This document shows, piece after piece, positions 7,699-47,949 of a DNA stretch of 64,000 nt. The stretch comes from Candidatus Nomurabacteria bacterium RIFCSPLOWO2_01_FULL_39_18 (GTDB lineage: Bacteria; Patescibacteriota; Minisyncoccia; Phycocordibacterales; UBA9973), in the NCBI GenBank assembly GCA_001787005.1, contig MFUV01000010.1:9955-73954 (forward strand), given 5' to 3'. Made by a program: the position numbers and the translations under genes. The notes under the pieces were generated by a model. It was not told the DNA's origin. It did no database searches and worked only from the letters and a program-made list of their open reading frames with translations. Every line of letters starts with the position of its first letter. Positions within the stretch are counted from its first letter, which is position 1.

Positions 7699-7742
7699 AC
7701 ATAAGTCAGACATGTGGGAACTCCCACATGTCTGACTTATGT
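7699..7742. repeat. 44-bp near-perfect palindrome; ACATGTGG palindromic-element family
   Basis: 20-bp arms cataagtcagacatgtggga / tcccacatgtctgacttatg; related copy in-frame inside topA at 22052. Confidence 0.6.
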
Positions 7743-15268: not shown

Positions 15269-15520
15269 ATGAAAAAATATCTAACATTTAATAATATTGC
15301 CCAGGTTAGCCTCGTAACTTTTACAATACTGGGATTTTTGCTGACTTCATTAAAACTCCCTCAATATGGATTACTTTCGAATTTAATTGGTCAGGTTTTC
15401 TGGTTTTATAGCGCATATAAGGCATGGAAAGAGGCAAATCAGATCGGTATTTTCATAACCACAACCATAATTGCTTTTATATTAATATTCGGCGTCATTA
15501 ACTATTGGTTTTTACAATAA
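15269..15520 (+). CDS. small membrane protein (83 aa)
   Basis: ORF with two hydrophobic helices. Confidence 0.3.
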   Translation: MKKYLTFNNIAQVSLVTFTILGFLLTSLKLPQYGLLSNLIGQVFWFYSAYKAWKEANQIGIFITTTIIAFILIFGVINYWFLQ

Positions 15521-16116
15521 TGACCCAACTTTTTGACATTCCATATTTGATTACTACCTATGGATACCTAGGTATTTTTATTATTGTCTTTTTGGAGTCT
15601 GGAATTTTCTTTGCCTTACCAGGAGACAGCTTGCTTTTCACTGCCGGGCTTTTTGCTTCTATTTTTAGTTTACAAATTTACTTTTTGATACCTTTAATAT
15701 TTTTTGCCACTTTTTTAGGGGGATTGGCGGGTTATGAAATAGGCGCTAATTTAGAGAGACTGAAAAGGTATTCCATTTTTAGAAAAATTCTAAAGGAAGA
15801 GTACGTAGCAAGGACGCATGAATTCTTCGATCGGCATGGAAAATTTACAATTATACTTTCTCGTTTTGTCCCTATCGTGCGGACTTTTGTCCCAATAGTG
15901 GCGGGAGTGGCTCAGATGCCATATAAATTATTTGTGAAATATAGCTTAGTCAGTTCAATTTTATGGTCGACGATTGTAACACTATCGGGGTATTTTTTAG
16001 GGCAGATTTTCCCTCATATTAAAGACTACATGTCGATTGTTATCCTACTAATTGTGGTTATTTCTACTTTGCCAATTGTTTTTGAAGCCATGCGAAAGCA
16101 GAAGAAGGACTTGTAA
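15505..16116 (+). CDS. DedA/SNARE-associated family membrane protein
   Basis: GYLGIFIIVFLESGIFFALPGDSLLF motif of DedA. Confidence 0.7.
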   Translation: MVFTIMTQLFDIPYLITTYGYLGIFIIVFLESGIFFALPGDSLLFTAGLFASIFSLQIYFLIPLIFFATFLGGLAGYEIGANLERLKRYSIFRKILKEEYVARTHEFFDRHGKFTIILSRFVPIVRTFVPIVAGVAQMPYKLFVKYSLVSSILWSTIVTLSGYFLGQIFPHIKDYMSIVILLIVVISTLPIVFEAMRKQKKDL

Positions 16117-16912
16117 ACCATCTAATTTTTTTGTCCCGTTTAAACCAAGTCATTTGTCGTTTGGCGTACTTTAGAGTTTGGCTCACCACCTTTTCATAAG
16201 TTGGGTTGAAGTATTCAAAGCCGAGCTTTTCTAGCCTCTTGTTAGAAACCCCAGCTTTTTTTAAATTTTTAATTTCATTAAGCAGTCCATCCTGAAACAT
16301 TTTTTTGACTCTTTTTTCTATTCTTTTCTTTAATTTATCTGCCGGTAAATACAAACCAGTTTTTATAAATTTATAATTTTGCGGGAAGATCTTCGGACGG
16401 GGGACTTTGCCTAGGGCTTTGGCGATTTCGATTGCCCGAATTAAGCGTACACCATTTTTTGAATCAATATTTTTTGCGCGAGCGGAGTCAAGTTTTTTAA
16501 GTATGACGAATAATGCGGCCGCTGATTTCGTCATCAGCTGGCGGCGTAGTTTCTGGTTGAGCGGAACTTCTGGGAGAATAATACCATTTACCACTGTATC
16601 AATATAGAATCCCGTTCCTCCACAAATTATTGGAATTTTTCCTCTTTTAATAATCTCCGCCATGGCGGAGATTGCGTGTTTTTGGTACTCGGCCACAGAA
16701 AACCCCCTTTTCGGATTCACAACATCAAGCAGATGATGCGGTATGCCCCGCATTTCTTTTTGAGTAATTTTCCCCGTGCCAATATCAAGACCTTTATAGA
16801 CCTGCCTAGAATCAGCAGAAATTATTTCTCCATTTATTTTCTTAGCAATTTTTACCGCTAGATCACTTTTCCCTGTGGCAGTTTGACCAAGAATCAAGAT
16901 AACTTTTTTCAT
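16064..16912 (-). CDS. miaA: tRNA dimethylallyltransferase
   Basis: ILGQTATGKSDLAV P-loop, ISADSRQVYKGLDIGTGK. Confidence 0.85.
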   Translation of the reverse strand: MKKVILILGQTATGKSDLAVKIAKKINGEIISADSRQVYKGLDIGTGKITQKEMRGIPHHLLDVVNPKRGFSVAEYQKHAISAMAEIIKRGKIPIICGGTGFYIDTVVNGIILPEVPLNQKLRRQLMTKSAAALFVILKKLDSARAKNIDSKNGVRLIRAIEIAKALGKVPRPKIFPQNYKFIKTGLYLPADKLKKRIEKRVKKMFQDGLLNEIKNLKKAGVSNKRLEKLGFEYFNPTYEKVVSQTLKYAKRQMTWFKRDKKIRWFTSPSSAFAWLQKQLAK

Positions 16913-20959: not shown

Positions 20960-23269
20960 TTAGTCTGCGATCTTTTTCATTTTATCTGGTCGAAAGTTGG
21001 GACACGCCTTATTTGAACAGCGTTCAGGAATGGTTTTCGTGCCCTCCATCATTAGGCTTCCGCATTTGTCGCAGATTTTGCCGGTTGGCTTAGCTTTGAT
21101 TGCAAATTTACAATTTGGATAATTTGAACAGGAATAAAAAATTCCAAACCTGCCGCGACGTTCCGAGATGTCGCCCTTCTTGCAAGTGGGACAAATTACC
21201 CCTGTTCTTTTTTTAGCCTCTTCGGCTTCGTCTTTTTTAATAAATTTACATTTCGGATAACGCGAGCAAGAGATGAACGAGCCCGTGCCATCGCGCCTTT
21301 CTTTTACTACCAATTTTCCTCCATATACTTTTTTCTTTTTTTCGCCTGCCTGCGCAGGCAGACCACAGTCTGGGCACGTTTCGCCGGTTTCTTCTGGACC
21401 TTTTAGTTCCGTACCGTCTAGCATTAACGCGCCATTACATTCTGGAAACTTTTCACAAGAATAGAATTTGCCCCCACGAGAAAGTTTGATAATCATTTTT
21501 GCCCCGCATTTCGGACATTTTATATTCTCTGGAGCATTGCCCAGATTTGTGGCCTTTTCCAATTTTTCCTTTGATTTAACATCTTTGGAAAATGGTCCAT
21601 AGAAGTCTCGCAGGGTCTTTTCATATTCTCTTTCGCCTCGAGCTATCTCGTCTAGTTCATCTTCCATCTCGGCCGTGAAAGTGTCAGAGATATAATTTGC
21701 AAAATGTTTTTCTAAAAAGTCTGACACAACTTCTCCCACGTCGGTGGGGAACAAGGTCTTGCCTTCTTTCTTGACATAATCCCTCTCTTCAATCGTTCTC
21801 ATAATAGACGCATAGGTACTGGGTCTGCCGATGCCCCTTTGCTCCAATTCTTTAATAAGTCCCGCTTCACTATATCTGCCTGGCGGCTCGGTGAACTTCT
21901 CTTCGCTGGTTAAATCAAGCAACTTTAATTTCTCTCCCGCCTTACATAGAGGTAGTTCAACATCCTCACCCCGAGCTCCAGTGTCTACCGCAAGCCACCC
22001 TCCAAAAAGAAGTCGTGAACCAGTGGCAGAAAAATTCGGAAAGTCAAAGTCCCCACATGTCGGACATGTGGAGTCCACATGTCCGACATGTGGGACAACA
22101 TTTGCCGTAATTTTGGTCTTTAGTAATTTAGCATCAGTCATTTGAGAAGATACAGCACGCTCCCAGATGAGCCGGTAGAGCCTATCTTGGTCATCGCTCC
22201 CTGTGTGTAACTTTTCAACATGCGTCGGACGGATAGCTTCGTGCGCTTCCTGGGCATTTTTTGACTTAGTTTTATAAATTCTATTATGTGCATATTTGTC
22301 ACTGTATTCTTTTTTTATAAAAGATAATATTTGGTTTTGGGCGACAACGCCAAGATTCGTACTGTCCGTACGCATGTAGGTAATATGCCCCGCTTCGTAA
22401 AGTTTCTGCGCTATCTGCATTGTCCGCGAAGGAGAGTAGCCAAGCCGTGAACTGGCGGTTTGTTGAAGTGTTGAAGTAGTAAAGGGCGCACGAGGAACTC
22501 TTTTTTGTTCTGATTCTTTCACGTCTTTAACTACCCAATTTCCATTTTCCCCCGTCTCTAAAATCTTTTCAACCAATTTCTGATCACGAGGCTCTTCGGA
22601 ACATTCCAAAGTAATTTTTTCCCCTCCTGCCTGAGGAGGGGTGCCCTTTAGGGTGGGGTGGTGGGAGGTCTCGAAAAGTCCTAATATTTTCCAATATTTT
22701 TCTGGAACAAAAGCGCGGATTTCTCGTTCACGTTCCATTATTATGCGAAGCGCAGGGGATTGCACACGCCCGGCCGAGAGTCCATAACGAACTTTTTTCC
22801 AAATCAACCCAGAAAGATCGTAGCCAACCAATCGGTCTAAGACTCGCCGCGCTTCTTGTGCTTTGCGTAAATTTGTGTCAATTTTCCTCGGATTCTTTAG
22901 CGCTTCTTCTACAGCTTCTTTTGTAATCTCATGAAAGGCGACTCTTTCTATCGGCGCCTTAACCTTCTTATCTTCATCCAGAAGCGTTTCTATGTGCCAG
23001 GCAATAGCCTCTCCTTCACGGTCGGGATCTGTTGCTAAGATTATTTCACTTGCTTTCTCTGCCAAGACTCTCAAATCGTGAACAACTTTTTCTTTTCCCT
23101 TGGAAATTTCATAATGCGGAATAAAACCTCCTTCAATATTGATCGCTTGTTTGTTTGATTTCGGCAAATCGCGAATATGCCCGACTGACGCACGCACGGC
23201 AAATGCGCCCTCGAGATATTTTTCAATAGTCTTTGCTTTTGATGGTGATTCAACAATTAATAATTTCAT
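20960..23269 (-). CDS. topA: DNA topoisomerase I with C-terminal zinc ribbons
   Basis: Toprim MKLLIVESPSKAKTI, catalytic Tyr region GHITYMRTDS, multiple CPxCG ribbons. Confidence 0.9.
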   Translation of the reverse strand: MKLLIVESPSKAKTIEKYLEGAFAVRASVGHIRDLPKSNKQAINIEGGFIPHYEISKGKEKVVHDLRVLAEKASEIILATDPDREGEAIAWHIETLLDEDKKVKAPIERVAFHEITKEAVEEALKNPRKIDTNLRKAQEARRVLDRLVGYDLSGLIWKKVRYGLSAGRVQSPALRIIMEREREIRAFVPEKYWKILGLFETSHHPTLKGTPPQAGGEKITLECSEEPRDQKLVEKILETGENGNWVVKDVKESEQKRVPRAPFTTSTLQQTASSRLGYSPSRTMQIAQKLYEAGHITYMRTDSTNLGVVAQNQILSFIKKEYSDKYAHNRIYKTKSKNAQEAHEAIRPTHVEKLHTGSDDQDRLYRLIWERAVSSQMTDAKLLKTKITANVVPHVGHVDSTCPTCGDFDFPNFSATGSRLLFGGWLAVDTGARGEDVELPLCKAGEKLKLLDLTSEEKFTEPPGRYSEAGLIKELEQRGIGRPSTYASIMRTIEERDYVKKEGKTLFPTDVGEVVSDFLEKHFANYISDTFTAEMEDELDEIARGEREYEKTLRDFYGPFSKDVKSKEKLEKATNLGNAPENIKCPKCGAKMIIKLSRGGKFYSCEKFPECNGALMLDGTELKGPEETGETCPDCGLPAQAGEKKKKVYGGKLVVKERRDGTGSFISCSRYPKCKFIKKDEAEEAKKRTGVICPTCKKGDISERRGRFGIFYSCSNYPNCKFAIKAKPTGKICDKCGSLMMEGTKTIPERCSNKACPNFRPDKMKKIAD
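21347..21360. repeat. 14-bp perfect palindrome tgcctgcgcaggca inside a topA zinc-ribbon loop (encodes LPAQAGEKK)
   Basis: Self-complementary; sequence context ttttttcgcctgcctg resembles the element at 22621. Confidence 0.4.
22052..22094. repeat. 43-bp perfect palindrome embedded in-frame in topA; ACATGTGG element family
   Basis: cccacatgtcggacatgtgga-g-tccacatgtccgacatgtggg; encodes the symmetric peptide PHVGHVDSTCPTCG. Confidence 0.6.
22621..22670. repeat. GC-rich palindromic element embedded in-frame in topA
   Basis: cccctcct-gcc-tgaggagggg tgcc... closely resembles the dus insertion cccctctcct-tgaca-aggagagggg tgcc; encodes GTPPQAGGEKI. Confidence 0.5.
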
Positions 23270-25632: not shown

Positions 25633-26523
25633 ATGATACAGAAACGAGATCTTTTAAATTCCCCCCGTCTTTTAGAATTAGATAAGAAAAGGCGAAAAAT
25701 TTTTCTCAAGAAATTTTCTATCTTGATGCTTGGATTGTTGGTGACCCTCATTTGCTTGGCTTATGTTTCCCGTATTGAAAAATTAAATATCAGTGGAGTA
25801 GAAATTTCAGGTAATAAAATAATTGATACGCAGGCAATAAAAGATGCAGTGGATGGGAAGCTTGCTGAAAAGTATTTGTGGTTTTTTCCAAAAACAAATA
25901 TATTCTTCTACCCTAAAAATGATATAAAAAATAATTTATCTGGTGAATTTAAGAGACTTGAAGATATAGAACTTTCCGTAAAAGAAGACAGGGTTCTCCA
26001 TATTTCCCTAACTGAACGAAGAGCTTTGTATACTTGGTGCGGAGAAAAAATTGATTTAAAAGAAGAGCCTGTATTTGAAAACGGAGCTCCGATAAATAAA
26101 TGCTATTTCTTAGACAAAAATGGATTCATTTTCGACGAGGCTCCATATTTTTCTGGAGAAGTTTATTTTAAGTTTTACGGAAAACTGCAATCAGATCCGC
26201 CTCTGGGGTCGTTCTTTTCAGAAACGAATTTTGGGAATTTAATTTTATTTAAAGAAACACTAGAGGATATGGGGTTACGGCCAGTAGCAATATATATTAT
26301 AGAAAATGAAACTATAAAAATATATCTCTCTAATGAATCTCAGCTATCGATGGGACCAGAAATTATATTAAAATCAAATGCCAATTTTCAAAAAGTGGCG
26401 GAAAATTTACAAGCGGCGCTAGCGACAGAACCTTTGCAGTCAGATTTTAAAAATAAATATTCATCCCTCTTGTATATAAACCTCCAATTTGGGAATAAGG
26501 TGTATTATAAGTTTCGCCAATGA
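25633..26523 (+). CDS. ftsQ: FtsQ/DivIB-like cell-division protein (TM + POTRA)
   Basis: Single N-terminal TM, then IEKLNISGVEISGNKIIDTQAIKDAV POTRA-like start. Confidence 0.45.
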   Translation: MIQKRDLLNSPRLLELDKKRRKIFLKKFSILMLGLLVTLICLAYVSRIEKLNISGVEISGNKIIDTQAIKDAVDGKLAEKYLWFFPKTNIFFYPKNDIKNNLSGEFKRLEDIELSVKEDRVLHISLTERRALYTWCGEKIDLKEEPVFENGAPINKCYFLDKNGFIFDEAPYFSGEVYFKFYGKLQSDPPLGSFFSETNFGNLILFKETLEDMGLRPVAIYIIENETIKIYLSNESQLSMGPEIILKSNANFQKVAENLQAALATEPLQSDFKNKYSSLLYINLQFGNKVYYKFRQ

Positions 26524-27572
26524 AAAGTTTTTGGGCAAAACTTAGCAGACCTATCTTCTGCTTGGCGCCGATGGCAGATGTAACGGACTGCGCCTTCAGG
26601 CAAATAATTGCGAAGTATAGCGCAGATACCCGCCCGACCGAACGGTCGTTCGGGCGGGTTTTTTTTACTGAATTTGTCTCAGCAGATGGATTAGCCCATC
26701 CCATAGCCAGAGAGAAACTTTTAATTGATTTAAAATATGGGCAAAACGAGCATCCAATAGTGGCGCAAATTTTTGGCGGGAAACCAGAAAATATAAAAAT
26801 AGCTTCTACGCTATGCAAGAATCTTGGCTTTGATGGCATCGATATCAATATGGGCTGTCCGGATAAATCTGTAGAAAAACAATGCGCTGGCGCCGCGTTG
26901 ATGAAAGATCCCATGCTTGCAAGAGAAATAATCCGCGTGGCCAAGGAGGGCGGGGGTGGACTACCCATTTCAGTAAAAACTCGTGTTGGCTACAACCCGC
27001 CCGGCGGATATGCCAGTCGGGCAGGCAAAAATGAAATGGAATCATGGGTAAAAACACTTCTCTCTGAAGATTTGGCGGCGTTAACTATACATTTACGCAC
27101 TCGCAAAGAGATGAGTCTCGTTCCCGCGCATTGGGATCTAATGAAGAGGATAGTTGAGATTAGAAATGAAATGAAGGTAGAAACTTTAATAATTGGTAAT
27201 GGTGACGTCATGGACACTGACGAAGCAAGGAGGAAGTGTGAAGAAACTGGGTGCGATGGGGTAATGTTGGGTAGAGCGATGTTTGGGAATCCGTGGCTGT
27301 TCACCTCACCCCCAACCCCTCTCCTTGACAAGGAGAGGGGTGCCAAAGGCGAGGTGAGGTCAATCCAGGAAAAGCTACAAGTCATGCTTGAGCACACCAA
27401 ACTTTTTGAAGAAATGCTGGGAAAGCACAAAAATTTCGCTATAATGAAAAAACATTTTAAGGCGTATGTCAGTGGCTGGGATGGCGCTAAAGAACTTCGA
27501 ATGAAGCTAATGGAGACAGAAAATGCCTCGCGGGTAGAAGCCATAGTTAATGATTTTTTAAGTAAAACCTGA
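26520..27572 (+). CDS. dus: tRNA-dihydrouridine synthase (carries two in-frame palindromic insertions)
   Basis: LAPMADVTDCAFR, IDINMGCPDKSVEKQCAGAALM catalytic Cys region, GRAMFGNPWLF. Confidence 0.8.
   Translation: MKSFWAKLSRPIFCLAPMADVTDCAFRQIIAKYSADTRPTERSFGRVFFTEFVSADGLAHPIAREKLLIDLKYGQNEHPIVAQIFGGKPENIKIASTLCKNLGFDGIDINMGCPDKSVEKQCAGAALMKDPMLAREIIRVAKEGGGGLPISVKTRVGYNPPGGYASRAGKNEMESWVKTLLSEDLAALTIHLRTRKEMSLVPAHWDLMKRIVEIRNEMKVETLIIGNGDVMDTDEARRKCEETGCDGVMLGRAMFGNPWLFTSPPTPLLDKERGAKGEVRSIQEKLQVMLEHTKLFEEMLGKHKNFAIMKKHFKAYVSGWDGAKELRMKLMETENASRVEAIVNDFLSKT
26628..26666. repeat. GC-rich hairpin followed by a T8 run, embedded in-frame in dus
   Basis: acccgcccg..cgaacg-gt-cgttcg..gggcgggt then tttttttt; encodes ADTRPTERSFGRV, which sits where Dus proteins normally have a short loop. 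Confidence 0.45.
27301..27362. repeat. 62-bp nested GC-rich palindromic element embedded in-frame in dus
   Basis: Outer stem acctcacc/ggtgaggt, inner stem cccctctcctt-gac-aaggagagggg; encodes the extra peptide TSPPTPLLDKERGAKGEVRS between the conserved PWLF and IQEKL. Confidence 0.55.
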
Positions 27573-27650: not shown

Positions 27651-28718
27651 ATGGAACAACATTTAGCATTATATAGGAAGTATCGCCCCAAGACTTTCAG
27701 TGAAGTCTTGGGACAAGACCATATTGTCAAAGTTTTAGAGAGCTCGATTGATACCAAAAAGGTCTCACATGCATACCTTTTTGTTGGCTCTCGTGGCACA
27801 GGTAAGACTTCTGTCGCCAGGATTTTCGCCTCTGAAATCGGTGTATCTCCAAACGATCTCTATGAAATAGACGCGGCTTCAAATAGGGGAATTGAAGATA
27901 TAAAATTACTGCGCGATGGTGTGCGTGTTTTACCTTTTGATTCAAAATATAAAGTCTACATCATTGATGAAGTCCATATGCTTTCCAAGGATGCTTGGGG
28001 GGCGCTTTTAAAAACTCTCGAGGAGCCGCCCAAGCACGTCATCTTTATTCTTGCTACCACCGAATTTCACAAAGTTCCCGAGACTATCATTTCTCGCTGC
28101 CAAGTTTTTACTTTTAGGAAAGCTTCGGATGCTGTAAATAAAAAAATGCTCCTGGATGTGGCAAAAAAAGAAGGTTTTGAATTAGAAAGTAGCGGGGCTG
28201 AACTTTTAGCAATTCTAGGAGATGGATCTTTCCGTGATGCGCAGGGTGAGCTTCAGAAGGTATTAAATTTTTCCCTCGGCCATAGACCTACGGGCGAGGC
28301 AAAAGGTAAGAAAATAAATAGAGAAGATGTAGAGAAAATAACCGGCGCTCCTAAAACAACCCTGGTGAATAATTTTATTTCTGCTATCGCTGAGAAAGAT
28401 TTAGAGAAGGGAATTTCAGCGGTAAAAGTGGCAGTGCAAGAGAACTTAGATATGAAGCTTTATTTAAAACTCATTATTGAAAAGCTACGAATCGTAATAA
28501 TTCTAAAATATGCACCAAAAATAAAAGACGAAATGGCGGGGGACTTAAGTGGAACGGATTTAGAATTTTTGAAGGGTTTGGTAAAAGAAGATAAAACCGG
28601 CATGCTCCGCTCCCAAGCACTTGCTACTCTGCTTGAAGCATATCAAAACATGGATAATGCGTTTATCACGGAATTGCCACTCGAACTTGCGTTGGTGAAA
28701 ATAATAAGTAAAGAATAA
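27651..28718 (+). CDS. dnaX: DNA polymerase III gamma/tau subunit (short form)
   Basis: YRPKTFSEVLGQ, GSRGTGKTS Walker A, DEVHML, SRC sensor motifs. Confidence 0.85.
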   Translation: MEQHLALYRKYRPKTFSEVLGQDHIVKVLESSIDTKKVSHAYLFVGSRGTGKTSVARIFASEIGVSPNDLYEIDAASNRGIEDIKLLRDGVRVLPFDSKYKVYIIDEVHMLSKDAWGALLKTLEEPPKHVIFILATTEFHKVPETIISRCQVFTFRKASDAVNKKMLLDVAKKEGFELESSGAELLAILGDGSFRDAQGELQKVLNFSLGHRPTGEAKGKKINREDVEKITGAPKTTLVNNFISAIAEKDLEKGISAVKVAVQENLDMKLYLKLIIEKLRIVIILKYAPKIKDEMAGDLSGTDLEFLKGLVKEDKTGMLRSQALATLLEAYQNMDNAFITELPLELALVKIISKE

Positions 28719-32348: not shown

Positions 32349-33833
32349 ATGGCAGTTAAAAAGTCGACAACTAAAAACACTCCAAGGAACTTGGGGCAGG
32401 GGCTCACTTTTGACGATGTCCTGCTGGTGCCGAATTACAGCGAAGTTCTGCCGAAAAACGTCACCACCAAGACCCGTCTGACAAAAAACATCTCTTTAAA
32501 TATTCCCTTTATGTCAGCGCCAATGGACACAGTGACAGAAGCCCCGATGGCAATAGCCATGGCGCAACAAGGTGGTATCGGTATTATTCACAAAAATTTA
32601 TCGATTGTTGATCAAGCGAAAGAAGTAGAGCGCGTAAAGAGGTACGAAGCTGGACGAATTGCCAATCCCGTTACCCTTAGCGTTGGTCAAACAGTAGGCG
32701 ATGCATTTGCCATACAAAAAAAATATCATTTCGGCGGTTTTCCTGTTTTAAATAAAAATGGCGTTTTGGTGGGAATTGTTACAAATCGCGATCTCCGTTT
32801 TCAGAAAAACGAATCTACTCCGATAGAGGAAGTTATGACTACTAAATTAATAACTGGAGGACCAAATACATCTATTGAAGAAGCAAATGATCTGTTTAAT
32901 AAACACGCCATAGAAAAGCTCCCATTGGTTGATAAAAATAATAAATTAGTAGGACTCATCACTTATCGTGATATCGCAAAGTCGAAAGAATATCCAAATG
33001 CTACCAAAGATACCTTAGGTAGGCTTCGTGTTGGAGCTACGGTGGGAGTTGGGAAAGATGTTTTACAGCATGTTAAGGCATTAGTTAACAGTAATGTTGA
33101 TATAGTCTGTGTTGAGACCGCTCATGGACATTCGCGAGGCGTACTGGACGCCGTAAAAAGAATTCGTAAAGCATATCCGAAGTTAGATATTATTGCTGGA
33201 AATATTGCAACAGGTGAGGCGGCAAGGACTCTTATAGACGCTGGAACCAATGCAGTAAAAGTCGGCATCGGACCCGGCTCAATATGCACGACACGAGTTG
33301 TCTCAGGCGTTGGCGTGCCACAGCTCTCTGCGGTTTCTGCCGTTTATGAAGTTTGTAAAAAACTTAACATTCCAGTTATTGCCGACGGTGGAATCAAACA
33401 TAGCGGAGATGTAGTGAAAGCTCTCGTCTTTGGGGCTGATGTTGTAATGGGCGGATCAATGTTCGCCGGCACCGATGAATCCCCGGGAGACACCATTGCA
33501 ATGAATGATCAGAAATTTAAAAAATACCGAGGCATGGGTAGTTTAGGCGCAATGCAGAGGGGATCTAAGGATCGTTATTTTCAAGGTGATGAATATGACA
33601 TGACCAAGTTGGTTCCCGAAGGTGTTTCGGGACATGTAGCTTATAAGGGCGCGCTTTCTGAAGTGATTCATCAATTCGTCGGCGGACTCCGAGCGGGTAT
33701 GGGCTATCTAGGAGCAGAGACTATTTCAAAATTACGAAATGCTTCGTATTATACAATTACATCTGCCGGATTAAATGAAAGTCATATCCATGATATTTTC
33801 ATGGTTAAACCTTCGCCCAACTACAAAAAATGA
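32349..33833 (+). CDS. guaB: inosine-5'-monophosphate dehydrogenase
   Basis: [14 protein letters not shown] pair, catalytic [11 protein letters not shown] loop. Confidence 0.9.
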
Positions 33834-35218
33834 AATTAAAAAATAAATCAAAAATCACTCCTCTCATTGGCTTACAGTGGGGCGACGAGGGGAAGGGCAA
33901 GGGCGTCGCCCGAATCGCTTCTAGCTTGTCTAAAAATGATTTAATCGTGCGTTTCCAGGGTGGAAATAATGCCGGACACACCATTTGGCAAGGAGGCAAG
34001 TCTTATGTTTTTAAGCTGATTCCTTCGGGAATTTTTGGGAGGGCGCAAATTCACCTAGGCGCTGGCATGGTGGTCAATCCAAGCGCGTTTTTTAATGAAA
34101 CTAAAACCATCCCAAAAAATATTTCTTTTTTAAAAAGGTTGTCAGTTTCCCCTCATGCCGTATTGATTTTACCTACACACGTTTTGCTTGACTCTGTTTC
34201 AGAAACAAAAAAGGGTGACAAGAAGATTGGCTCGACAGGCAGAGGCATAGCGCCTGCATATACTGACCTGGTGTCGAGAAATGCCTTGCGAGTTGGCGAT
34301 ATATTTCAAAAAGATTTTAAAAAACGTTACCAAGTATTGTGCGACCAGCATAAAAAAATCCTTCTTAATTTATATAAATATAAAGTTAGCAGTGAGAAAT
34401 TTAAAAAAAGCGAAGGAAACTTTTTCTCTGGAATTAAATTTTTAAAGTCATTAACAATAAAAAATTCTGCTGATTTGGTTGCAGAAATATTGGCAAAGGG
34501 AGGGAAGATAATTGCCGAGGGGGCACAGGGCACATTTCATGATATTAGATTTGGCAATTACCCATTTGTCACATCTTCACATACTATTGCGGGCGGTGTG
34601 GCTACGGGTTTGGGCATACCTCCGTCCTGGATTGGTGGAGCAATTGGAATTTGTAAAGCCTATGCCACCAAGGTAGGCGAAGGACCTTTCCCGACGGAGC
34701 TTGGGGGAGAGAGGTCCGCTGTCTGGTGCCGAGATAAAAAATTCAATTATGAAAAAGAAAAATTCCCCAACCCCGGCCCGAACAGTAAGGATGAATTTAG
34801 GCAAGGAGTGGCGCTTCGCCGGCTTGGAAATGAAATTGGTGCAGTTACGGGGCGGCTTCGCCGCACCGGCTGGCTAGACATCCCGCTTATAAAATATGCG
34901 ATAAAAATAAACAACGCGACAGAGCTTGTATTAACGAAGCTGGATGTGTTGGATAATTTTAAAAAAATAAAAGTCTGCACTCACTATATTATCAACGGCA
35001 GAAGAACGACAGATATTCCATTTGATCTTTCTCGAGAGAAAATAAAATGCGTGTATAAATCTTTTCCTGTCTGGAGAGGGAAGTTGGAAGATTATGATAA
35101 TAAGCTTCCAAGAGAAGCACTTGATTATGTCCGATATTTAGAAAAAACTCTCGGCGTAAAAATTATCTACGTCGGCACCGGTCCCGAAGAGCATCATGTG
35201 GTAGAGCGATATTGGTAA
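33830..35218 (+). CDS. purA: adenylosuccinate synthetase
   Basis: GLQWGDEGKGK P-loop, GNNAGHT, TKLDVLD motifs. Confidence 0.9.
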   Translation: MKLKNKSKITPLIGLQWGDEGKGKGVARIASSLSKNDLIVRFQGGNNAGHTIWQGGKSYVFKLIPSGIFGRAQIHLGAGMVVNPSAFFNETKTIPKNISFLKRLSVSPHAVLILPTHVLLDSVSETKKGDKKIGSTGRGIAPAYTDLVSRNALRVGDIFQKDFKKRYQVLCDQHKKILLNLYKYKVSSEKFKKSEGNFFSGIKFLKSLTIKNSADLVAEILAKGGKIIAEGAQGTFHDIRFGNYPFVTSSHTIAGGVATGLGIPPSWIGGAIGICKAYATKVGEGPFPTELGGERSAVWCRDKKFNYEKEKFPNPGPNSKDEFRQGVALRRLGNEIGAVTGRLRRTGWLDIPLIKYAIKINNATELVLTKLDVLDNFKKIKVCTHYIINGRRTTDIPFDLSREKIKCVYKSFPVWRGKLEDYDNKLPREALDYVRYLEKTLGVKIIYVGTGPEEHHVVERYW

Positions 35219-35247
35219 AAAAGCTAATTTTATATTAATATAGTTAT

Positions 35248-38145
35248 ATGATTTCCCGAATATTCGTAATGCTGAAAAATGGGGCGACGAGAGCAGATTC
35301 TTATCTTATCGATTCTAAATTCTTGAAAAAAGAGTTAATCAAACTTGCGGAAGCGCTGACTAATCCGATCCTAGAAAATTTCTCTATCAACAACTTGGAG
35401 GTCTTGCCTCCAAATGGAGGCAAGACCTCCAAGTTTACTTATGCGATTGAAATTGGTTTCAAGCCTGGGGTGACCGATAATGTTGGACACACCGTCGAGG
35501 AAATTGCCAGAGATCTGCTTGGTGTAAAAAAGAATCCTGACTTCCACGTGTATACTTCAAAAATTGTTTTCATCTCTCTTTCAAAAAAAGATGCGGAAAA
35601 ATACGCTCTTACTTTGTATAACCCACTAATTGAAAAATCACTGATAGTACCAGTGAAGAACAAAAAGATAAGTTTGCCTAAAAAAGTGCCAAAGGTTGTC
35701 CTTAAAAAAAGAAAACCGGTTATAAATGTTTCTCTTAAGGTTTCTGATGAAGAACTCATTAAAATCGGCAAAGAGGGAATAAAGGATGGAGACGGCACAC
35801 GCAGAGGGCCATTGGCGCTCGACCTGGCATCTATGAAAACCATTCAGGGATATTTTAAAAAATTAAAAAGAAGTCCGACAGATATAGAACTTGAGTCCCT
35901 GGCGCAAACTTGGTCGGAACATTGCAAACATACCATTTTCGCCAATCCGATTGATAATATAAAAGATGGCTTATATAAAACTTATATAAAAGGCGCAACC
36001 AATTTAATACGCAAACAAAAAGGTAAAAATGATTTCTGCGTTTCTGTTTTCTCTGACAACTCTGGTGGAATTATTTTTGATAAGGACTATTTAATCACAC
36101 ATAAGGTTGAGACGCACAACAGCCCCTCGGCACTTGACCCGTTTGGCGGAGCTATTACCGGCATCGGAGGGGTAAATCGTGATGCCATTGGCTTCGGACT
36201 TGGCGCCAAACCAGTTGCGAATACTTATGGATTCTGCCTCGCTCCACCAGATGAAAAAAGAAAATTATTTAGGGATAAAGACAGAACTCAAGCCTTGCTA
36301 CCCGCAAAAAGAATTATGGAAGGAGTAATAAAGGGGATTAATGTCGGAGGAAATTGTTCCGGTATTCCGACTCTTTCCGGATTTATTAAATTCGATGACA
36401 GATTTAGAGGCAAACCTTTAGTTTTCGCTGGAACAGTTGGATTAATCCCGAGAAAGAATGGTAGTAAACTTCTACACGAGAAGAAGGCAAGGGTGGGGGA
36501 CTATATTGTGATGGTTGGCGGAAAGGTAGGGCTTGATGGTATACATGGAGCGACTTTTTCTTCGGTAACTCTTGATTCAACTTCGCCCGCAACCGCAGTG
36601 CAAATTGGCGACCCCATAACTCAAAAAAAGTTAAGCGATGCGATAGTCAAAGAAGCCAGGGGATTAAATTTATACAACAGCATCACGGACGACGGCGCGG
36701 GAGGACTGTCTTGTTCCGTGGCAGAAATGGCAAAAGAATGTGGTGGAGCAAAAGTAATGCTTGAAAAGGTGCCCTTGAAATACCCAGGACTGCGCCCTTG
36801 GGAAATCTGGATTTCGGAATCCCAGGAGCGGATGACACTCTCTGTGCCAAAAAAAAAGTGGAAGAAGTTTAATGAATTGATGAAAAGTCGGGGAGTAGAA
36901 GCTACGGTGATAGGAAAATTCACAAATTCAGGGAATTGTGTTGTGAATTATAAAGGCAAAAAGATAATGGACCTAGATATGGAATTCCTGCATAATGGAC
37001 TTCCCAAACAGCATTTAACCACGATTCCATATTTACAAAATAATAAAGAGCCTCAAATTCCCAAAAATTCATCACTTACAAAAACTTTGGAAAATTTGCT
37101 GGGAAATAATAACATCAGCGGTTTTTCTTATATCTCACAACAATATGACCATGAGGTGCAAGCGTCTTCTGTATTAAAACCTCTCTCGGGCAGGGGTCGC
37201 ATCAACACCGATGCGCAAGTTTTCCGGCCAGTTCTAAGTTCGGAAAAGGGCGTTATTCTGTCTACCGGAGTTTATCCTTCATATGGAGACATCAATACTT
37301 ATTACATGGCGGCTTGCGCGTTAGATACAGCAATTCGAAATATTATTGCTTCTGGTGGGTCACTATCTAATCTTGCGATCTTGGATAATTTCTGTTGGTG
37401 CTCGTCGTATGATAAAACTCGCTTGGCACAGCTTGTGGACGCAGTAAAGGCATGCTACGACTACGGAGTGGGCTACGGCACGCCTTTTATATCCGGTAAG
37501 GACAGCATGTTTAATGATTTTAGGGGTTATGATGAGAAGGGTAATCCTATCGCTATTTCTATCCCGCCAACACTGCTCATCTCGGCAATTGGAGTGGTGC
37601 CTGATATTTATAAAATAATTTCTCCTGAATTTAAAAATGTTGGAGACGTGATTTACTTGCTCGGAAAGACGGATGATGAGCTTGGTGGAAGTGAGTACTA
37701 TAAATCACTAAAGGCGGTTGGGAATGATGTGCCGAAAGTTAATTTGGAAAAAAATTTAAAAACATATTTAGCGCTTGAAAGGGCTATCCAGAAAGAATTG
37801 GTTGCTTCTTCGATTTCTGTAACTTCTGGGGGACTGGCAATAGCGCTGGCTAAGACATGTGTCGGTGGAATGCTCGGATGTAATATTAGCGTCAGGGGCA
37901 TGCCTGGAAGTTCAAAATCGGCCGATGCGAAGCTTTTTTCCGAAAGCCAGGGAAGGATTCTGGTATCTATATCGCCCCAAAATATAAGCGCATTTGAAAA
38001 AATCATAAAAAATATTCCTTATGCTAAAATGGGGAAAGTTGTAAAAGACGGAAAATTCACAATTACAGACAAAACAAAAATAGTTAAAACCGATGTTAAA
38101 AAACTGTACAAAATTTATCACAGATTTTCAGAAAAAATGAAATGA
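35248..38145 (+). CDS. purL: phosphoribosylformylglycinamidine synthase subunit PurL with N-terminal PurS-like domain
   Basis: 965 aa; N-terminal segment FKPGVTDNVGHTVEEIARDLLG resembles PurS; AIR-synthase-related repeats follow (ETHNSPSALDPFGGAITGIGG). Confidence 0.85.
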   Translation: MISRIFVMLKNGATRADSYLIDSKFLKKELIKLAEALTNPILENFSINNLEVLPPNGGKTSKFTYAIEIGFKPGVTDNVGHTVEEIARDLLGVKKNPDFHVYTSKIVFISLSKKDAEKYALTLYNPLIEKSLIVPVKNKKISLPKKVPKVVLKKRKPVINVSLKVSDEELIKIGKEGIKDGDGTRRGPLALDLASMKTIQGYFKKLKRSPTDIELESLAQTWSEHCKHTIFANPIDNIKDGLYKTYIKGATNLIRKQKGKNDFCVSVFSDNSGGIIFDKDYLITHKVETHNSPSALDPFGGAITGIGGVNRDAIGFGLGAKPVANTYGFCLAPPDEKRKLFRDKDRTQALLPAKRIMEGVIKGINVGGNCSGIPTLSGFIKFDDRFRGKPLVFAGTVGLIPRKNGSKLLHEKKARVGDYIVMVGGKVGLDGIHGATFSSVTLDSTSPATAVQIGDPITQKKLSDAIVKEARGLNLYNSITDDGAGGLSCSVAEMAKECGGAKVMLEKVPLKYPGLRPWEIWISESQERMTLSVPKKKWKKFNELMKSRGVEATVIGKFTNSGNCVVNYKGKKIMDLDMEFLHNGLPKQHLTTIPYLQNNKEPQIPKNSSLTKTLENLLGNNNISGFSYISQQYDHEVQASSVLKPLSGRGRINTDAQVFRPVLSSEKGVILSTGVYPSYGDINTYYMAACALDTAIRNIIASGGSLSNLAILDNFCWCSSYDKTRLAQLVDAVKACYDYGVGYGTPFISGKDSMFNDFRGYDEKGNPIAISIPPTLLISAIGVVPDIYKIISPEFKNVGDVIYLLGKTDDELGGSEYYKSLKAVGNDVPKVNLEKNLKTYLALERAIQKELVASSISVTSGGLAIALAKTCVGGMLGCNISVRGMPGSSKSADAKLFSESQGRILVSISPQNISAFEKIIKNIPYAKMGKVVKDGKFTITDKTKIVKTDVKKLYKIYHRFSEKMK

Positions 38146-39833
38146 AAACTGAAAATAAAAAATGCGAAAGTTGTAAAAAGGATTTCACTATCGAGCCGGA
38201 TGATTTTGGATTCTATGAACAAATGAAGGTCCCGCCGCCGGTCTGGTGTCCGCATTGCAGACTTCTGCGACGAATGGCTTGGTATGGCTACCGAATTTTA
38301 TATAAGCGCAAATGCGATTTCACCGGAGAAAATATTATCACGTTTTACCATCCGGATTTACCAGTCAAAGTCTACAAGCAAGATGTTTGGTGGGGCGATG
38401 GCTGGGATCCAAAAAGTTATGGGTGTGACTATGATTTCAATAGGCCTTTTTTCGAGCAGTATAAAGAATTATTGGATGAAGTGCCGAAGGCATCGCTCCA
38501 CACAGAATACAGCACTATGATAAACAGTGAATACTGCAACGCCGCCAGCTTTCAGAAAAATGGCTACTTGTGTTTCAAACATATTACCGGTGAAGATTCC
38601 GCATATACAAATGTTGCCTTAAATACGAAAGATTCTCTCGACCTGGCTTATTCCGCCGATCCTGAGCTTTGTTATGAAATTGTTGACGTGCGGAAGTGTT
38701 TTCAGACATTTTTTTCTCAGGATTGCGAGAATTGCCAAAATGTTTATTTTTCTCGAGACTTAGTGAATTGCGGCGATTGCTTTGGATGCACTTCTCTAAG
38801 AAATAAAAATTATTATATCTTTAACGAACAATATACACGAGAAGAATATATGAAAAAACTCAAGGAATTTAATCTTGGTTCAATGAAAAATGTACAGAAG
38901 TTCAAAAAGCAGGCATATGCCCTCTCGTTAAACTTTCCTCGTCGTTCCACGATGGGTCGTAATAATACAAATGTTTCTGGTGAATATATTTATAATTCTA
39001 AAAATACTCATGATTCATACTTCATTGCAGATTCAGAAAACGTCAGATATTGTCAATTGTTTTTAAAAGGCGGGGTGCATAACTGCTATGATTTCACGGC
39101 TTTTGGCTCTGCTTCAGAATGGGTTTACGAAGCGACGTGGACTGGGCTTAATACCTCCAATGTAAAATTCAGTATTTGGAATTATCGCAATCATGATACT
39201 GAATATACCTTTGGTTGCCATGGATGCGCTTATTTATTTGGTTGTGTCGGACTCCGAAAGGCGGAATATTGCATTTTCAACAAGCAATACACTAAGGAAG
39301 AATATTTTCCACTGGTTGAGAAAATAAAAAAGCAGATGGATGACATGCCATTCGTGGACAGAAGGGGATTAGAACATAGATATGGCGGGCAAATGCCTAT
39401 AGATCTTTGTCCTTGGGCATACAATGAAACTACCGCTTACGAATTTTTTCCACTCACCAAAGAAGAAGCATTGGCAAAAGGCTTTGCCTGGCGCGACCCT
39501 GACGAACGAGAATATCTTCCAGCCACCATTGTCGTGCCTGACCATATTAAAGATGTAACAGATGATATAACAAAAGAAGTTTTGAAGTGCGAAGCTTGTG
39601 GCAAAAATTATCAAATTATTCAAAAAGAACTTCAATTTTTGAAACGATTTAATCTTCCCATCCCTATCCATTGCCCGCTTTGTCGTGACAGGGCCCGCAT
39701 TAAACAATTAAACCCAATACAAAGCTATAATCGCAAATGTGATAAGTGCGATGTGACCATCCAAACTTCCTACGCTCCCGACCGACCAGAAATAGTGTAT
39801 TGCGAGAATTGTTACAAACAAGAAGTATATTAA
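38142..39833 (+). CDS. large cysteine-rich protein of unknown function, paralog 1 (zinc-ribbon-like modules at both termini)
   Basis: 563 aa, >35 Cys; N-terminal CESCKK..FYEQMKVPPPVWCPHCRLLRR, C-terminal CEACGK..IHCPLCRDRAR..YCENCYKQEVY; two internal C-x2-C..FGC..FN.QYT.EEY repeats; overlaps the purL stop by 4 nt. Confidence 0.5.
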   Translation: MKTENKKCESCKKDFTIEPDDFGFYEQMKVPPPVWCPHCRLLRRMAWYGYRILYKRKCDFTGENIITFYHPDLPVKVYKQDVWWGDGWDPKSYGCDYDFNRPFFEQYKELLDEVPKASLHTEYSTMINSEYCNAASFQKNGYLCFKHITGEDSAYTNVALNTKDSLDLAYSADPELCYEIVDVRKCFQTFFSQDCENCQNVYFSRDLVNCGDCFGCTSLRNKNYYIFNEQYTREEYMKKLKEFNLGSMKNVQKFKKQAYALSLNFPRRSTMGRNNTNVSGEYIYNSKNTHDSYFIADSENVRYCQLFLKGGVHNCYDFTAFGSASEWVYEATWTGLNTSNVKFSIWNYRNHDTEYTFGCHGCAYLFGCVGLRKAEYCIFNKQYTKEEYFPLVEKIKKQMDDMPFVDRRGLEHRYGGQMPIDLCPWAYNETTAYEFFPLTKEEALAKGFAWRDPDEREYLPATIVVPDHIKDVTDDITKEVLKCEACGKNYQIIQKELQFLKRFNLPIPIHCPLCRDRARIKQLNPIQSYNRKCDKCDVTIQTSYAPDRPEIVYCENCYKQEVY

Positions 39834-39837
39834 AATG

Positions 39838-39874
39838 CTATTCTAGTGTTTTGCAAAAAACTGAAATAAGAAAA
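39838..39874. promoter_or_regulatory. copy of the TTCTAGTGTTTTGCAAAA-ACTGAAATA motif between the two Cys-rich paralogs
   Basis: ctattctagtgttttgcaaaaaactgaaataagaaaa; about 95% identical to 56897-56934 and related to the palindrome at 1788. Confidence 0.45.
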
Positions 39875-41619
39875 TGGAGAATAAAAAAGAAAACAAAATA
39901 TGCCAGAATTGTAAAAAGAATTTCGTCATTGAACCGGATGATTTTTCTTTTTATGAAAAGATGCGGGTACCGCCGCCGACCTTTTGCCCGGAGTGCAGAT
40001 TTCAAAGAAGACTATTGTTCAGAAATAATCGGGTTTTTTATAGGCGAGAGTGCGCTTTATGTAATAAATCAATATTGAGTGTGTACAACAAGAAAAAGTC
40101 TTACACTATTTTTTGTCATGAATGTTGGCTTTCTGATAAATGGGATCCAATGGACTATGGCCGCGAATATGATTTTTCCATTCCATTTTTCAGCCAATTT
40201 CGCTCACTGCAATCAAAAGTCCCCAGGGCGAATTTATATAGAGAAAATTTTATATTAAGTGATTACTGCAACTACGGTCTTGATTTTAAAGAATGCTATT
40301 TATTGTTTGGTGGACAAAATAACGAAAGAGTATATTTTGGAAACCAAATTTTTGATTCACACGATTCTTTTGATATAGCTTTTTCTGAAAAAGTAGAATT
40401 CAGTTATGAAATTTTTGAATGCGCCAGAACCAATCTTTTGTTCTTCAGCCACCATTCAAATGACTGCATTGATAGTTTTTATTTAGCAGACTGTAGAAAC
40501 TGCATGAATTGTTTTGGTTGTGTTGGGTTAGTGAACAAACAATATTATGTTTTTAATAAACCATACACCAAAGAACAATATCAAAAATTTATAAAATCAA
40601 ATAATATTGGAAGTTTCAAAAATCATCAGGAATTCCTTAAAAAACTCAAAGAATTAGAATCAAAAATACCTCATCGTTATGCTCGTATTTATAAATCAGT
40701 GAATTCTGACGGTGACGACTTGTCAGAAGCTAGAAGTACTCATAACTCTTTTAGCTCTCGCCAAGCTGAAGATTCTAAATATTTATTTTTCTGCAGGCAT
40801 AGGTCAAAAGATTGCTATGATAATTCGTTTAATGGCGTAAACGCTGAACTTCTTTATGAGATTGCTCATGGTTTTGGAGGATCAAATGGAGCCTTCAGCA
40901 TGAGAAATTTTGATAACCAAGATTTTTTCTATAACGAAGAATGCCATAACTGCCATAATATTTTCGGATGTGAAGGTCTACGCAAGAAACAGTACTGTAT
41001 TTTAAATAAACAATACAACAAAAAAGAATATGGAGAGATTTTGCCAAAAATAATCAAGCACATGAATGATATGCCGTATCATGACCAGAAAGGAAGAACC
41101 TATAAATACGGAGAGTTTTTCCCGGCGGAACTTTCGCCTTTTGCTTATAATGAAAGTATCGCTCAAGAATATTTCCCCTTAACAAAGGAAGAAGCTTTAG
41201 AACAAGAATATAAATGGGAAGATGGAGAAACGAGGAATTATAAAATTGATATAGATAGTAAAGATATCCCAGACCACATAAAAGATGTTGGGGAGGATAT
41301 TGTGGGTAAAGTTATCGCTTGTGAACATGCGGGAGGATGCAAAGACCAATGCACTGAAGCATTTAAGATTGTTCCAGAAGAATATAAATTTTATAAAAGA
41401 TTCAACTTGCCACTACCCAGGTTGTGTTCAAATTGCCGGCATTATCAGCGAATCGGATTAAGAAATCCACTAAAGCTCTGGGATAGAAAGTGCATGTGTG
41501 ATAAAGAAGGTCATTTCCATGAAAAAGAAAAATGTGTAGTAGAATTCAAAACAAGTTACGCTCCCGATCGACCAGAAATCATTTTTTGTGAAAAATGTTA
41601 CCAGCAAGAAATTTATTAG
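39874..41619 (+). CDS. large cysteine-rich protein of unknown function, paralog 2
   Basis: 581 aa; same architecture as paralog 1 and roughly 40-45% identical by eye (CQNCKKNF..FYEKMRVPPPTFCPECRFQRR .. FCEKCYQQEIY). Confidence 0.5.
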   Translation: MENKKENKICQNCKKNFVIEPDDFSFYEKMRVPPPTFCPECRFQRRLLFRNNRVFYRRECALCNKSILSVYNKKKSYTIFCHECWLSDKWDPMDYGREYDFSIPFFSQFRSLQSKVPRANLYRENFILSDYCNYGLDFKECYLLFGGQNNERVYFGNQIFDSHDSFDIAFSEKVEFSYEIFECARTNLLFFSHHSNDCIDSFYLADCRNCMNCFGCVGLVNKQYYVFNKPYTKEQYQKFIKSNNIGSFKNHQEFLKKLKELESKIPHRYARIYKSVNSDGDDLSEARSTHNSFSSRQAEDSKYLFFCRHRSKDCYDNSFNGVNAELLYEIAHGFGGSNGAFSMRNFDNQDFFYNEECHNCHNIFGCEGLRKKQYCILNKQYNKKEYGEILPKIIKHMNDMPYHDQKGRTYKYGEFFPAELSPFAYNESIAQEYFPLTKEEALEQEYKWEDGETRNYKIDIDSKDIPDHIKDVGEDIVGKVIACEHAGGCKDQCTEAFKIVPEEYKFYKRFNLPLPRLCSNCRHYQRIGLRNPLKLWDRKCMCDKEGHFHEKEKCVVEFKTSYAPDRPEIIFCEKCYQQEIY

Positions 41620-41622
41620 TAC

Positions 41623-41656
41623 ACATACCAACATACTGGAGTTTGTAAGGATATTA
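41623..41656. promoter_or_regulatory. second copy of the 34-bp ACATAC-AACATACTGGAGTTTGTAAG-ATATTA motif, ending 5 bp upstream of the purQ ATG
   Basis: 32/34 identical to 30599-30632. Confidence 0.5.
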
Positions 41657-41661
41657 AAATT

Positions 41662-42477
41662 ATGGAAAAGAAAAATAAATCAAAAAATAAAAAACCGAAA
41701 ATCATTGTCCTCTCTGGGTATGGACTTAATTGCGAAGAAGAAACGAAGTTTGCTTTTGAGTCTGCGGGTGCAAAAAAAAATGTAAGAGCGGACATCGTGC
41801 ACATCAATGACTTGATTGCTAAACCGAGAATGTTGCAGAAGTATGACGTCATGGCTTTTCCAGGTGGATTTTCTTATGGTGATGATACGGGAAGCGGGAA
41901 AGCTTATGCTAATAAATTCAAAAATTATTTAGCAAAAGAACTGGAAGAATTTTTAGCGCGTGATACTCTTGTTATTGGCATTTGTAATGGATTTCAAATA
42001 ATCACAAACTTAGGAATTCTGCCCGGAGCGCTAACATATAATAAAAATGGAAGATATCTTGATCGTTGGGTTGATTTGAAAGTAACGGGACGAAGTCCTT
42101 GGCTCAAGGATATTAAAAAAATATCTCTTCCCATAGCGCACGGTGAGGGACATTATGTTATTTCACCTAAAGAATACAAAAAAATACAAAAGGATAAACA
42201 AATAGCATTTAAATATATAAAAGGGGAAATCTGTAAATTCCAAAATTTGGAACATAACCCAAATGGATCAGACTATGACATTGCGGGTGTTTTGGCTTAT
42301 AATGGAAGGGTTCTTGGATTGATGCCTCACCCTGAGCGAGCAATGTTTTCTCATCAAAACCCTTTGTGGCATATAAATAAAAACACACCAAAAGAAGGGA
42401 GGGGATTGCAGGTTTTTAAAAATGCTATAAATTATTTTTCCGCCCGAGGCGGATCCGCCTATGGCGGAAAGAAATAA
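41662..42477 (+). CDS. purQ: phosphoribosylformylglycinamidine synthase glutamine amidotransferase subunit
   Basis: Class I GATase: GICNGFQI catalytic Cys, HPE at the C-terminus. Confidence 0.85.
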   Translation: MEKKNKSKNKKPKIIVLSGYGLNCEEETKFAFESAGAKKNVRADIVHINDLIAKPRMLQKYDVMAFPGGFSYGDDTGSGKAYANKFKNYLAKELEEFLARDTLVIGICNGFQIITNLGILPGALTYNKNGRYLDRWVDLKVTGRSPWLKDIKKISLPIAHGEGHYVISPKEYKKIQKDKQIAFKYIKGEICKFQNLEHNPNGSDYDIAGVLAYNGRVLGLMPHPERAMFSHQNPLWHINKNTPKEGRGLQVFKNAINYFSARGGSAYGGKK

Positions 42478-44507: not shown

Positions 44508-44511
44508 TCGA

Positions 44512-45234: not shown

Positions 45235-45243
45235 AATAATAAT

Positions 45244-46539: not shown

Positions 46540-46551
46540 TAGTATGAATTC

Positions 46552-47100: not shown

Positions 47101-47102
47101 AA

Positions 47103-47945: not shown

Positions 47946-47949
47946 TCAC

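Follow-up and report, generated by a model that had tools for sequence, protein, structure and literature searches.

Very small GC-rich palindromic elements inserted in frame in dus and other genes of a Candidatus Nomurabacteria genome

Three in-frame hairpin insertions in dus

The 64,000-nucleotide (nt) stretch of contig MFUV01000010.1 analysed here (hereafter, the window) is densely coding DNA of 38% GC, and its genes match those of Candidatus Nomurabacteria, members of the Patescibacteria, or candidate phyla radiation (CPR). On its forward strand lies dus, an open reading frame (ORF; 26520–27572) encoding a tRNA-dihydrouridine synthase of 350 amino acids (aa; Pfam Dus, E = 2.8e-59), the start of which overlaps the stop codon of the gene upstream and the top homologues of which are labelled Nomurabacteria or Paceibacterota. 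An original prediction, made from the letters of the window, placed two in-frame GC-rich palindromic insertions in this gene and likened them to the Rickettsia palindromic elements (RPEs). Both palindromes were found where they had been placed, and both are stable relative to shuffled sequences, but the count of two fell short: dus hosts three in-frame palindromic insertions, measuring 30, 30 and ~60 nt. Across the window, 19 GC-rich palindromes of at least 8 pairs are present, compared with 1–5 in shuffles, and 13 of the 19 lie within genes.

The first insertion, hairpin 1, is a 30-nt element that we call E30 (CCCGCCCGACCGAACGGTCGTTCGGGCGGG; 26629–26658, forward strand) and that codes for (T)RPTERSFGR. 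Its palindrome extends out to 26628–26659, with 14-nt arms that are 93% complementary (one mismatch), and its RNA folds at -24.8 kcal/mol (z = -3.6). The empty site reads GAT/GTT TTT TGG (slashes mark the points of insertion), and in the window it is filled as GAT/ACCCGCCCGACCGAACGGTCGTTCGGGCGG/GTT. The peptide ADTRPTERSFGRV that had been proposed as extra does mark an insertion, but it extends beyond the inserted segment, which has a net length of exactly 30 nt (TRPTERSFGR). The second insertion (26997–27026, forward strand; AAC/30 nt/AAA), which the original prediction missed, adds PPGGYASRAG after the residues GYN; it is GC-rich and forms a hairpin of -17.8 kcal/mol (z = -2.9), and in relatives this site is either empty or holds a variant of 33 nt whose ends are the same. 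The third, hairpin 2 (27300–27363, forward strand), encodes TSPPTPLLDKERGAKGEVRS and is, as predicted, a nested palindrome that follows the PWLF motif in frame, within a hypervariable linker. It is composed of a head, CACCTCACC(CCCAA), an inner hairpin (27315–27341), a spacer and the inverted head, GGTGAGGTC. The inner arms (27315–27327 and 27329–27341) are 13 nt long and 100% complementary, the outer arms lie at 27300–27310 and 27353–27363, and the fold (-37.3 kcal/mol, z = -5.3) was matched by none of 200 shuffles.

Exact insertion events were read from codon alignments with the DNA of relatives. The 26 dus orthologues aligned (69–79% identity) encode proteins of 313 to 405 aa, and all of the length differences fall in a few hot spots. 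At site 1, most of the 26 have KY-GKPD-VFW, with no added peptide, and a minority contain RPTERSFGR; at site 2, most have GYN-KNE; and at site 3, after PWLF, there are between 0 and ~70 extra residues. These alignments confirm that both of the peptides first proposed are lineage-specific insertions, lacking in most orthologues, and that the hairpins keep the reading frame. Among 78 lineage-specific insert segments from 83 dus genes, 37% fold at z < -2, and the mean free energy per nt is -0.25 kcal/mol, versus -0.14 for control segments. A frame break between the first and last match was present in 0 of 80 dus loci from genome contigs, and every insert seen was in frame and free of stop codons.

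In an AlphaFold2 model of the window protein (predicted local distance difference test score, pLDDT, 76; predicted template modelling score, pTM, 0.77), pLDDT drops below 50 at residues 36–44, 157–171 and 269–277, segments that correspond to the three inserts; low confidence is otherwise confined to a known flexible loop (residues 113–126). Each insert falls between secondary-structure elements in the model, which places all three in loops of Dus, and the structure of the Thermotoga maritima enzyme (1VHN) is without the site-1 and site-2 peptides.

Repeat families at unrelated loci

A search of metagenome contigs and of the window for further copies revealed that both of the elements first described belong to repeat families present at other, unrelated loci (comparison loci are designated here by L numbers). 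For the 30-mer, an exact match was demanded, and the scan of metagenome contigs returned 62 loci, which together with the window and L081 copies make up 51–52 distinct flanking contexts, about 75% of them (38/51) inside ORFs of at least 150 aa. The 30-mer has six peptide readings (PARPNGRSGG, xRPTERSFGR, PPDRTVVRAG, PARTTVRSGG, RPNDRSVGR and PPERPFGRAG), and its use of frames is skewed (counts of 20, 5, 0, 2, 9 and 2; p = 3e-8), which fits what is expected from selection on a translated peptide. Host genes include carB (two sites), purL, gyrA, lepA, uvrD, pyrG, infB, prfA, uvrC, tkt, tpiA, mreC, holB, gatC and the gene for RNase R; the copies occur in both orientations, in dozens of unrelated genes, and have no common position relative to gene ends. 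The contigs that carry them range from 31 to 59% GC, and the one with 59% GC (L137) is from Ca. Peribacter riflensis, which belongs to a different CPR class. We looked around the 30-mer for target duplications and for a fixed motif and found neither. Its variable flanks are only weakly biased (rich in A on the 5′ side, G(G/T)A(T) on the 3′ side, with A, G or T at position -1 and mostly A at position -3), which may simply reflect Lys/Asp-rich loops.

The dus gene of L081 contains two copies of the 30-mer, the second of which occupies a different site (GATG/30 nt/GCGCC) that reads GAT GGC GCC in empty orthologues, a clean insertion with no duplication. The element is identical at 30 of 30 positions in the window, L081 and L144, the dus genes of which are 66–72% identical to one another, and 42–50% identical at third codon positions; judged by this comparison of sequences, the 30-mer appears to be younger than its host gene, or homogenised relative to it. 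At 60-nt resolution, we found no raised identity, as in a recombination tract, around the elements shared in dus and topA. Copies decay once in place, as indicated by the site-1 copy in L082, which has 4–5 mismatches and a weak fold (z = -1.7) and remains in frame within an intact ORF, encoding a similar peptide. For copies that are still intact, either insertion was recent or some process keeps them uniform. At one nucleotide position in purL, the 30-mer is present in forward orientation in L089 and reversed in L136, and the site is empty in the window (purL, 35248–38145), a pattern that could result from repeated insertion at a preferred site or from inversion in place (flip/flop). An ORF in L125 (3540–4322) includes QPARPDPARQNHSGGGRSGGE, which has the look of the PARPNGRSGG reading of the 30-mer in a composite or expanded form.

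The hairpin-2 core, preceded by the same CCTCACCCC lead, recurs in L084 (topA), L112 (an ORF), L142 and L009. The only other pyrimidine-arm/purine-arm hairpins in the window surround a gene encoding a DUF559/Vsr-like (PD-(D/E)xK) endonuclease (60252–60632, reverse strand), which lies between gltX and murG and is a candidate partner of these repeats: one doublet of head+hairpin units is located immediately 3′ of the gene (60173–60265) and another immediately 5′ of it (60646–60731). A DUF559 protein encoded in the window matches one from Ca. Nomurabacteria bacterium RIFCSPLOWO2_01_FULL_39_18 at 100% identity. The position between murG and gltX is conserved in four lineages, and the bracketed arrangement recurs in four other lineages and at L154, a second locus. 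At all of the loci examined (6 of 6), DUF559 is bordered by units of the pattern CAACCCCTCC-NN-(CCYCCCC TTGTCA GGGGRGG), often paired as inverted doublets, and one of these units has the order head, hairpin, inverted head, which is the architecture of hairpin 2. Within four 5.4-kb loci, 10 of the 12 head+hairpin hairpins are no more than 250 nt from the DUF559 gene. A covariance model built from 17 DUF559-flanking units matched the dus site-3 insert of L004 twice (E = 7.5e-7 and 5.4e-6, an in-frame inverted doublet), indicating that the hot spot occupied by hairpin 2 does hold in-frame units of the DUF559-associated family, and it gave E values of 0.05 and 0.22 for the dus site-3 inserts of L009 and L084, respectively. 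By architecture, and not by a significant score, hairpin 2 of the window appears to be a diverged relative of this family.

Several further observations concern these two families. In L093, L114 and L116, the 30-mer lies within or beside head+hairpin units (in L114 and L116, between head and hairpin), a nesting of one element in another. L125 carries a solo head+hairpin doublet and no DUF559 gene. L121 (7200–8200) has an intergenic 30-mer that precedes a distant homologue of DUF559 (43% identity) by 315 nt, on a contig of 54% GC that encodes a 2010-aa protein with a borderline match to a type IX secretion system (T9SS) sorting domain (Por_Secre_tail). This copy may lie outside the CPR; because its non-CPR appearance depends on that borderline match, we make no cross-phylum claim. 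Scans of viral contigs gave no exact match to the 30-mer or to the hairpin-2 core and no relatives of DUF559, and BLAST searches of phage and plasmid collections with the 30-mer gave only chance partial matches to Gordonia phages, or none.

Palindromes of other families are present elsewhere in the window. An 18-nt family, which we call E18 (CCTGCCTGCGCAGGCAGG; PACAGR), is represented by two insertions in the dus gene of L082 and by copies in topA (in frame, one mismatch; 21345–21362, reverse strand) and purN (44222–44239, forward strand) of the window. On the reverse strand, topA also contains an in-frame 43-nt perfect palindrome (VPHVGHVDSTCPTCG; 22052–22094), the site of which is empty in L084 and occupied by a different, unrelated hairpin in L081, and a GC-rich hairpin insertion (SHHPTLKGTPPQAGG; 22613–22678) that is absent from both L081 and L084. 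Three further hairpins lie on the forward strand: an insertion in dnaX (CCTCGGCCATAG..ACGGGCGAGG, encoding SLGHRPTGEA; 28274–28299), a hairpin of the same family in the C-terminal tail of purE (47063–47091), and an in-frame 44-nt perfect palindrome in purL (LEVLPPNGGKTSK; 35392–35435) that the L089 orthologue lacks. In-frame insertions are thus present in topA and dnaX as well as in dus, and probably also in purL, purN and purE. A 44-nt perfect palindrome (7699–7742), located in the spacer that separates map from an M50 peptidase gene, shares a GACATGTGG..CCACATGTC core with the topA 43-mer, which indicates that this family has intergenic as well as genic copies. Not every coding palindrome in the region is an element, since a 30-nt near-palindrome in dnaX (27685–27714) lies within a conserved N-terminal motif (YRPKTFSEVLGQ) and is not an insertion.

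Origin of the insertions and alternative explanations

We consider it highly probable that the dus hairpins are copies of very small (18–62 nt), GC-rich palindromic repeats that are, or recently were, mobile in Patescibacteria: selfish mini-palindromes, similar to repetitive extragenic palindromic (REP) sequences, that are tolerated in coding DNA. The elements are present in some orthologues and absent from others, inserted exactly and without duplication at many unrelated sites and in six frames, located in loops, and subject to decay when old. In the mechanism we propose, element lengths would be multiples of three and, as GC-rich palindromes, the elements would be almost devoid of stop codons in any frame, so that an insertion would merely add a short peptide rich in Pro, Gly, Arg and Ser; the inserts are probably translated, and copies would survive where the added peptide lands in a surface loop. 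Hairpin 1 would belong to a 30-nt family whose sequence is the same in distant CPR lineages, and hairpin 2 would be a head–hairpin–inverted head unit with an architecture like that of REPs and of their inverted doublets (REPINs), canonical units of which flank the conserved DUF559 gene. Spread would occur in trans, by an enzyme acting on DNA hairpins or cruciforms, and for the head+hairpin family only, the DUF559 protein may be that enzyme.

Several points weigh against this interpretation. No mobilising enzyme was identified and, for the 30-mer, there is no candidate. The window contains no Y1/IS200-type transposase: IS200-type TnpA gave no tblastn match in these 64 kb, which are only part of the genome, and REP-associated tyrosine transposases (RAYTs) are divergent. 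Several site-3 inserts elsewhere are unique palindromes, possibly of local origin. The conservation of 30-mer copies is partly a matter of ascertainment, given the exact-match search, which biases the comparison with L144 and leaves that between the window and L081 unaffected. Hairpin 2 is the best match of the covariance model in the window outside the training units, yet it scores only 11.2 bits (E = 0.56), and its placement in the family is therefore based on common architecture and on same-site intermediates (L084 and L009). Finally, DUF559 keeps its place between murG and gltX in four lineages and may therefore be an ordinary gene, with hairpins on either side that act in its own expression; a GGGAGG box 6–8 nt before the DUF559 ATG forms the 3′ arm of the upstream hairpin, and this hairpin could simply mask the ribosome-binding site.

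The link between DUF559 and repeat movement is, then, an unproven candidate and a lead only. A bolder reading, which we regard as doubtful, invokes a new type of REP/RAYT-like system in Patescibacteria: a conserved, single-copy DUF559 endonuclease would mobilise the repeats that flank its gene, and these families, along with others such as the 30-mer, would spread between CPR classes and routinely remodel the surface loops of essential proteins. If so, the forward and reversed 30-mers at one position of purL would reflect a hairpin-based (flip/flop) insertion chemistry.

Alternatively, the DNA or RNA structure itself could do something, with the peptide as a passenger. Roles of this kind include attenuation or termination within dus, mRNA stability, ribosome pausing, a protein-binding site and a DNA-uptake signal. 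The 30-mer is perfectly conserved in host genes that have diverged, and the hairpin-2 orthologue in L082 retains its fold (-39.3 kcal/mol, z = -5.9) despite changes that include a swap of a G-C for an A-T pair; both are consistent with a conserved structure. The original prediction also noted a resemblance of hairpin 1 to an intrinsic terminator, and the form is real: a strong, GC-rich stem-loop, 110–150 nt into the dus ORF, is directly followed by U8 (T8 in the DNA, 26659–26666, forward strand). The T-run, however, consists of native Val-Phe-Phe codons that are already present in the empty site (Val-Phe-Phe/Trp, GTT TTT TGG), and it is weaker in the orthologous copies of hairpin 1, which indicates that termination is at most a by-product and not why the element is there. 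Terminator-like sites are not enriched in this region (22, versus 15.6 ± 3.3 in shuffles), and the resemblance of hairpin 1 to a terminator is in all likelihood incidental. The elements are, moreover, missing from most orthologues; the hairpin-1 copy of L082 has lost most of its fold within an intact gene; and copies occur in all frames and both orientations, scattered over dozens of unrelated genes irrespective of gene ends. We therefore judge a functional motif unlikely.

It is very unlikely that the palindromes were instead made on the spot, through template switching during replication or hairpin-mediated repair that duplicates neighbouring sequence in inverted form. Some inserts at dus site 3 do have the look of such events, being unique palindromes with one arm that overlaps native coding sequence, such as those in L007 (KRSDL...KRSDL) and L013 (17-nt arms), and the same loops recur as hot spots. 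Local events do not account for a hairpin 1 that is identical at 51–52 unrelated sites or for the recurrence of the 18-mer and of hairpin-2 units at unrelated loci, and when we checked the arms of hairpin 1, neither was derived from the flanking dus sequence.

A further alternative, that the hairpins are untranslated intervening sequences cut from the mRNA or bypassed by the ribosome, has precedents in the byp elements of yeast mitochondria and in T4 gene 60, and CPR rRNA genes carry unusual insertions. The hairpins are compact and stable enough to suit such a role. This explanation is nevertheless highly improbable, given that all inserts seen are in frame and stop-free, with no frame break at any of the 80 dus loci, that the frame use of the 30-mer is strongly skewed, and that a decayed, poorly folding copy is still in frame. 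An assembly or sequencing artefact, which had been raised as a possible objection and for which we found nothing in favour, deserves next to no credence, since the exact 350-aa Dus protein is encoded on 13 contigs from independent assemblies (different samples and assemblers), two of which differ from the window by 0 and 1 nt across 3 kb, and orthologous copies of the elements are present in many other genomes.

Relation to known palindromic repeats

RPEs (RPE-1 to RPE-10; Ogata et al. 2000) are ~100–150 bp long and confined to Rickettsia, a genus of Alphaproteobacteria (PMC10969869). The elements described here resemble them in being multi-copy palindromes that lie in frame in unrelated housekeeping genes, add a fold-compatible peptide and encode no transposase. 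They differ in length (18–62 nt), in being strongly GC-rich in a 38% GC genome, and in their patescibacterial host; in addition, one 30-mer is identical in sequence across CPR classes, and a single gene may contain several elements. The RPE-like behaviour in an unrelated lineage that the original prediction proposed is thus a fair functional description, because both elements belong to families at other, unrelated loci, but, compared by size and host, the elements are far shorter than RPEs and are analogues rather than members of those families.

REPs are extragenic, have a GTAG or CGTC head and are partnered by a Y1 HUH transposase, the RAYT (PMC3733652). Shared with REPs and REPINs are palindromes of 20–40 nt, inverted doublets and a single-copy nuclease gene flanked by repeats (here, DUF559). 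The copies in our data set, in contrast, are mostly intragenic, their head is C-rich (CAACCCCTCC-like) or absent, with neither GTAG nor CGTC, and the flanked gene is of the PD-(D/E)xK/Vsr-like DUF559 type. The GC clusters of yeast mitochondria and the repetitive hairpin-forming elements of sponges are GC-rich organelle hairpins located mainly between genes (PMC2800124). They are similar, by description and not by sequence, in that short GC-rich hairpins of multiple families have invaded compact, AT-rich genomes, occasionally within coding regions, but they are not bacterial.

Palindrome-associated elements derived from IS200/IS605 share with the present elements a basis in hairpins, the lack of target-site duplication and seamless empty sites. 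They require, however, a Y1 TnpA and a fixed target of 4–5 nt located 5′ of the element, whereas the flanks of the 30-mer are only weakly biased. L084 contains an IS200-like Y1 transposase gene (15380–15940) with its own subterminal hairpins (CGGCTTGCCGCG core). We rejected this transposase as the mover, since its hairpins have no sequence relationship to the in-frame palindromes and it has no homologue in the window or at the other loci. Miniature inverted-repeat transposable elements were ruled out by the comparison of empty and filled sites, which showed no target-site duplication, and Rfam gave nothing above the gathering threshold, with only sub-threshold chance matches.

In the literature searched, neither in-frame palindromes in CPR/Patescibacteria nor a link between DUF559 and repeats had been described. 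To our knowledge, there is essentially one textbook case of in-frame palindromic selfish DNA, that of Rickettsia. Its occurrence outside Rickettsia has only been speculated on, in a 2024 review (PMC10969869). The same behaviour would now extend to the CPR in a more extreme form, with elements down to 18–30 nt in length, several per gene, sitting in core genes for replication, translation and nucleotide synthesis, and with a 30-mer that is identical at 38% and 59% GC. Such elements would account for a large part of the puzzling differences in length among CPR proteins, and these segments should not be mistaken for functional domains. They could also provide natural markers with which to trace recent exchange of DNA between episymbionts that are uncultured, and DUF559 with its flanking repeats offers a tractable lead to how very small palindromes move.

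Three further features of the window were noted. A non-coding stretch of 366 nt (57095–57460) contains a 37-nt palindrome (57198–57234) with further copies of TGTCGCACAAT and ATGTCGCA upstream of it (57150–57190), and could be an operator or origin-like region. A 22-nt perfect palindrome, AATCTCCGCCATGGCGGAGATT, lies within miaA (16652–16673). CPR bacteria are usually described as being without de novo nucleotide synthesis, and the window carries a large purine-biosynthesis cluster (33830–49110; purA, purL, purQ, purF, purN, purE and a purM-like gene), several genes of which have hairpin inserts.

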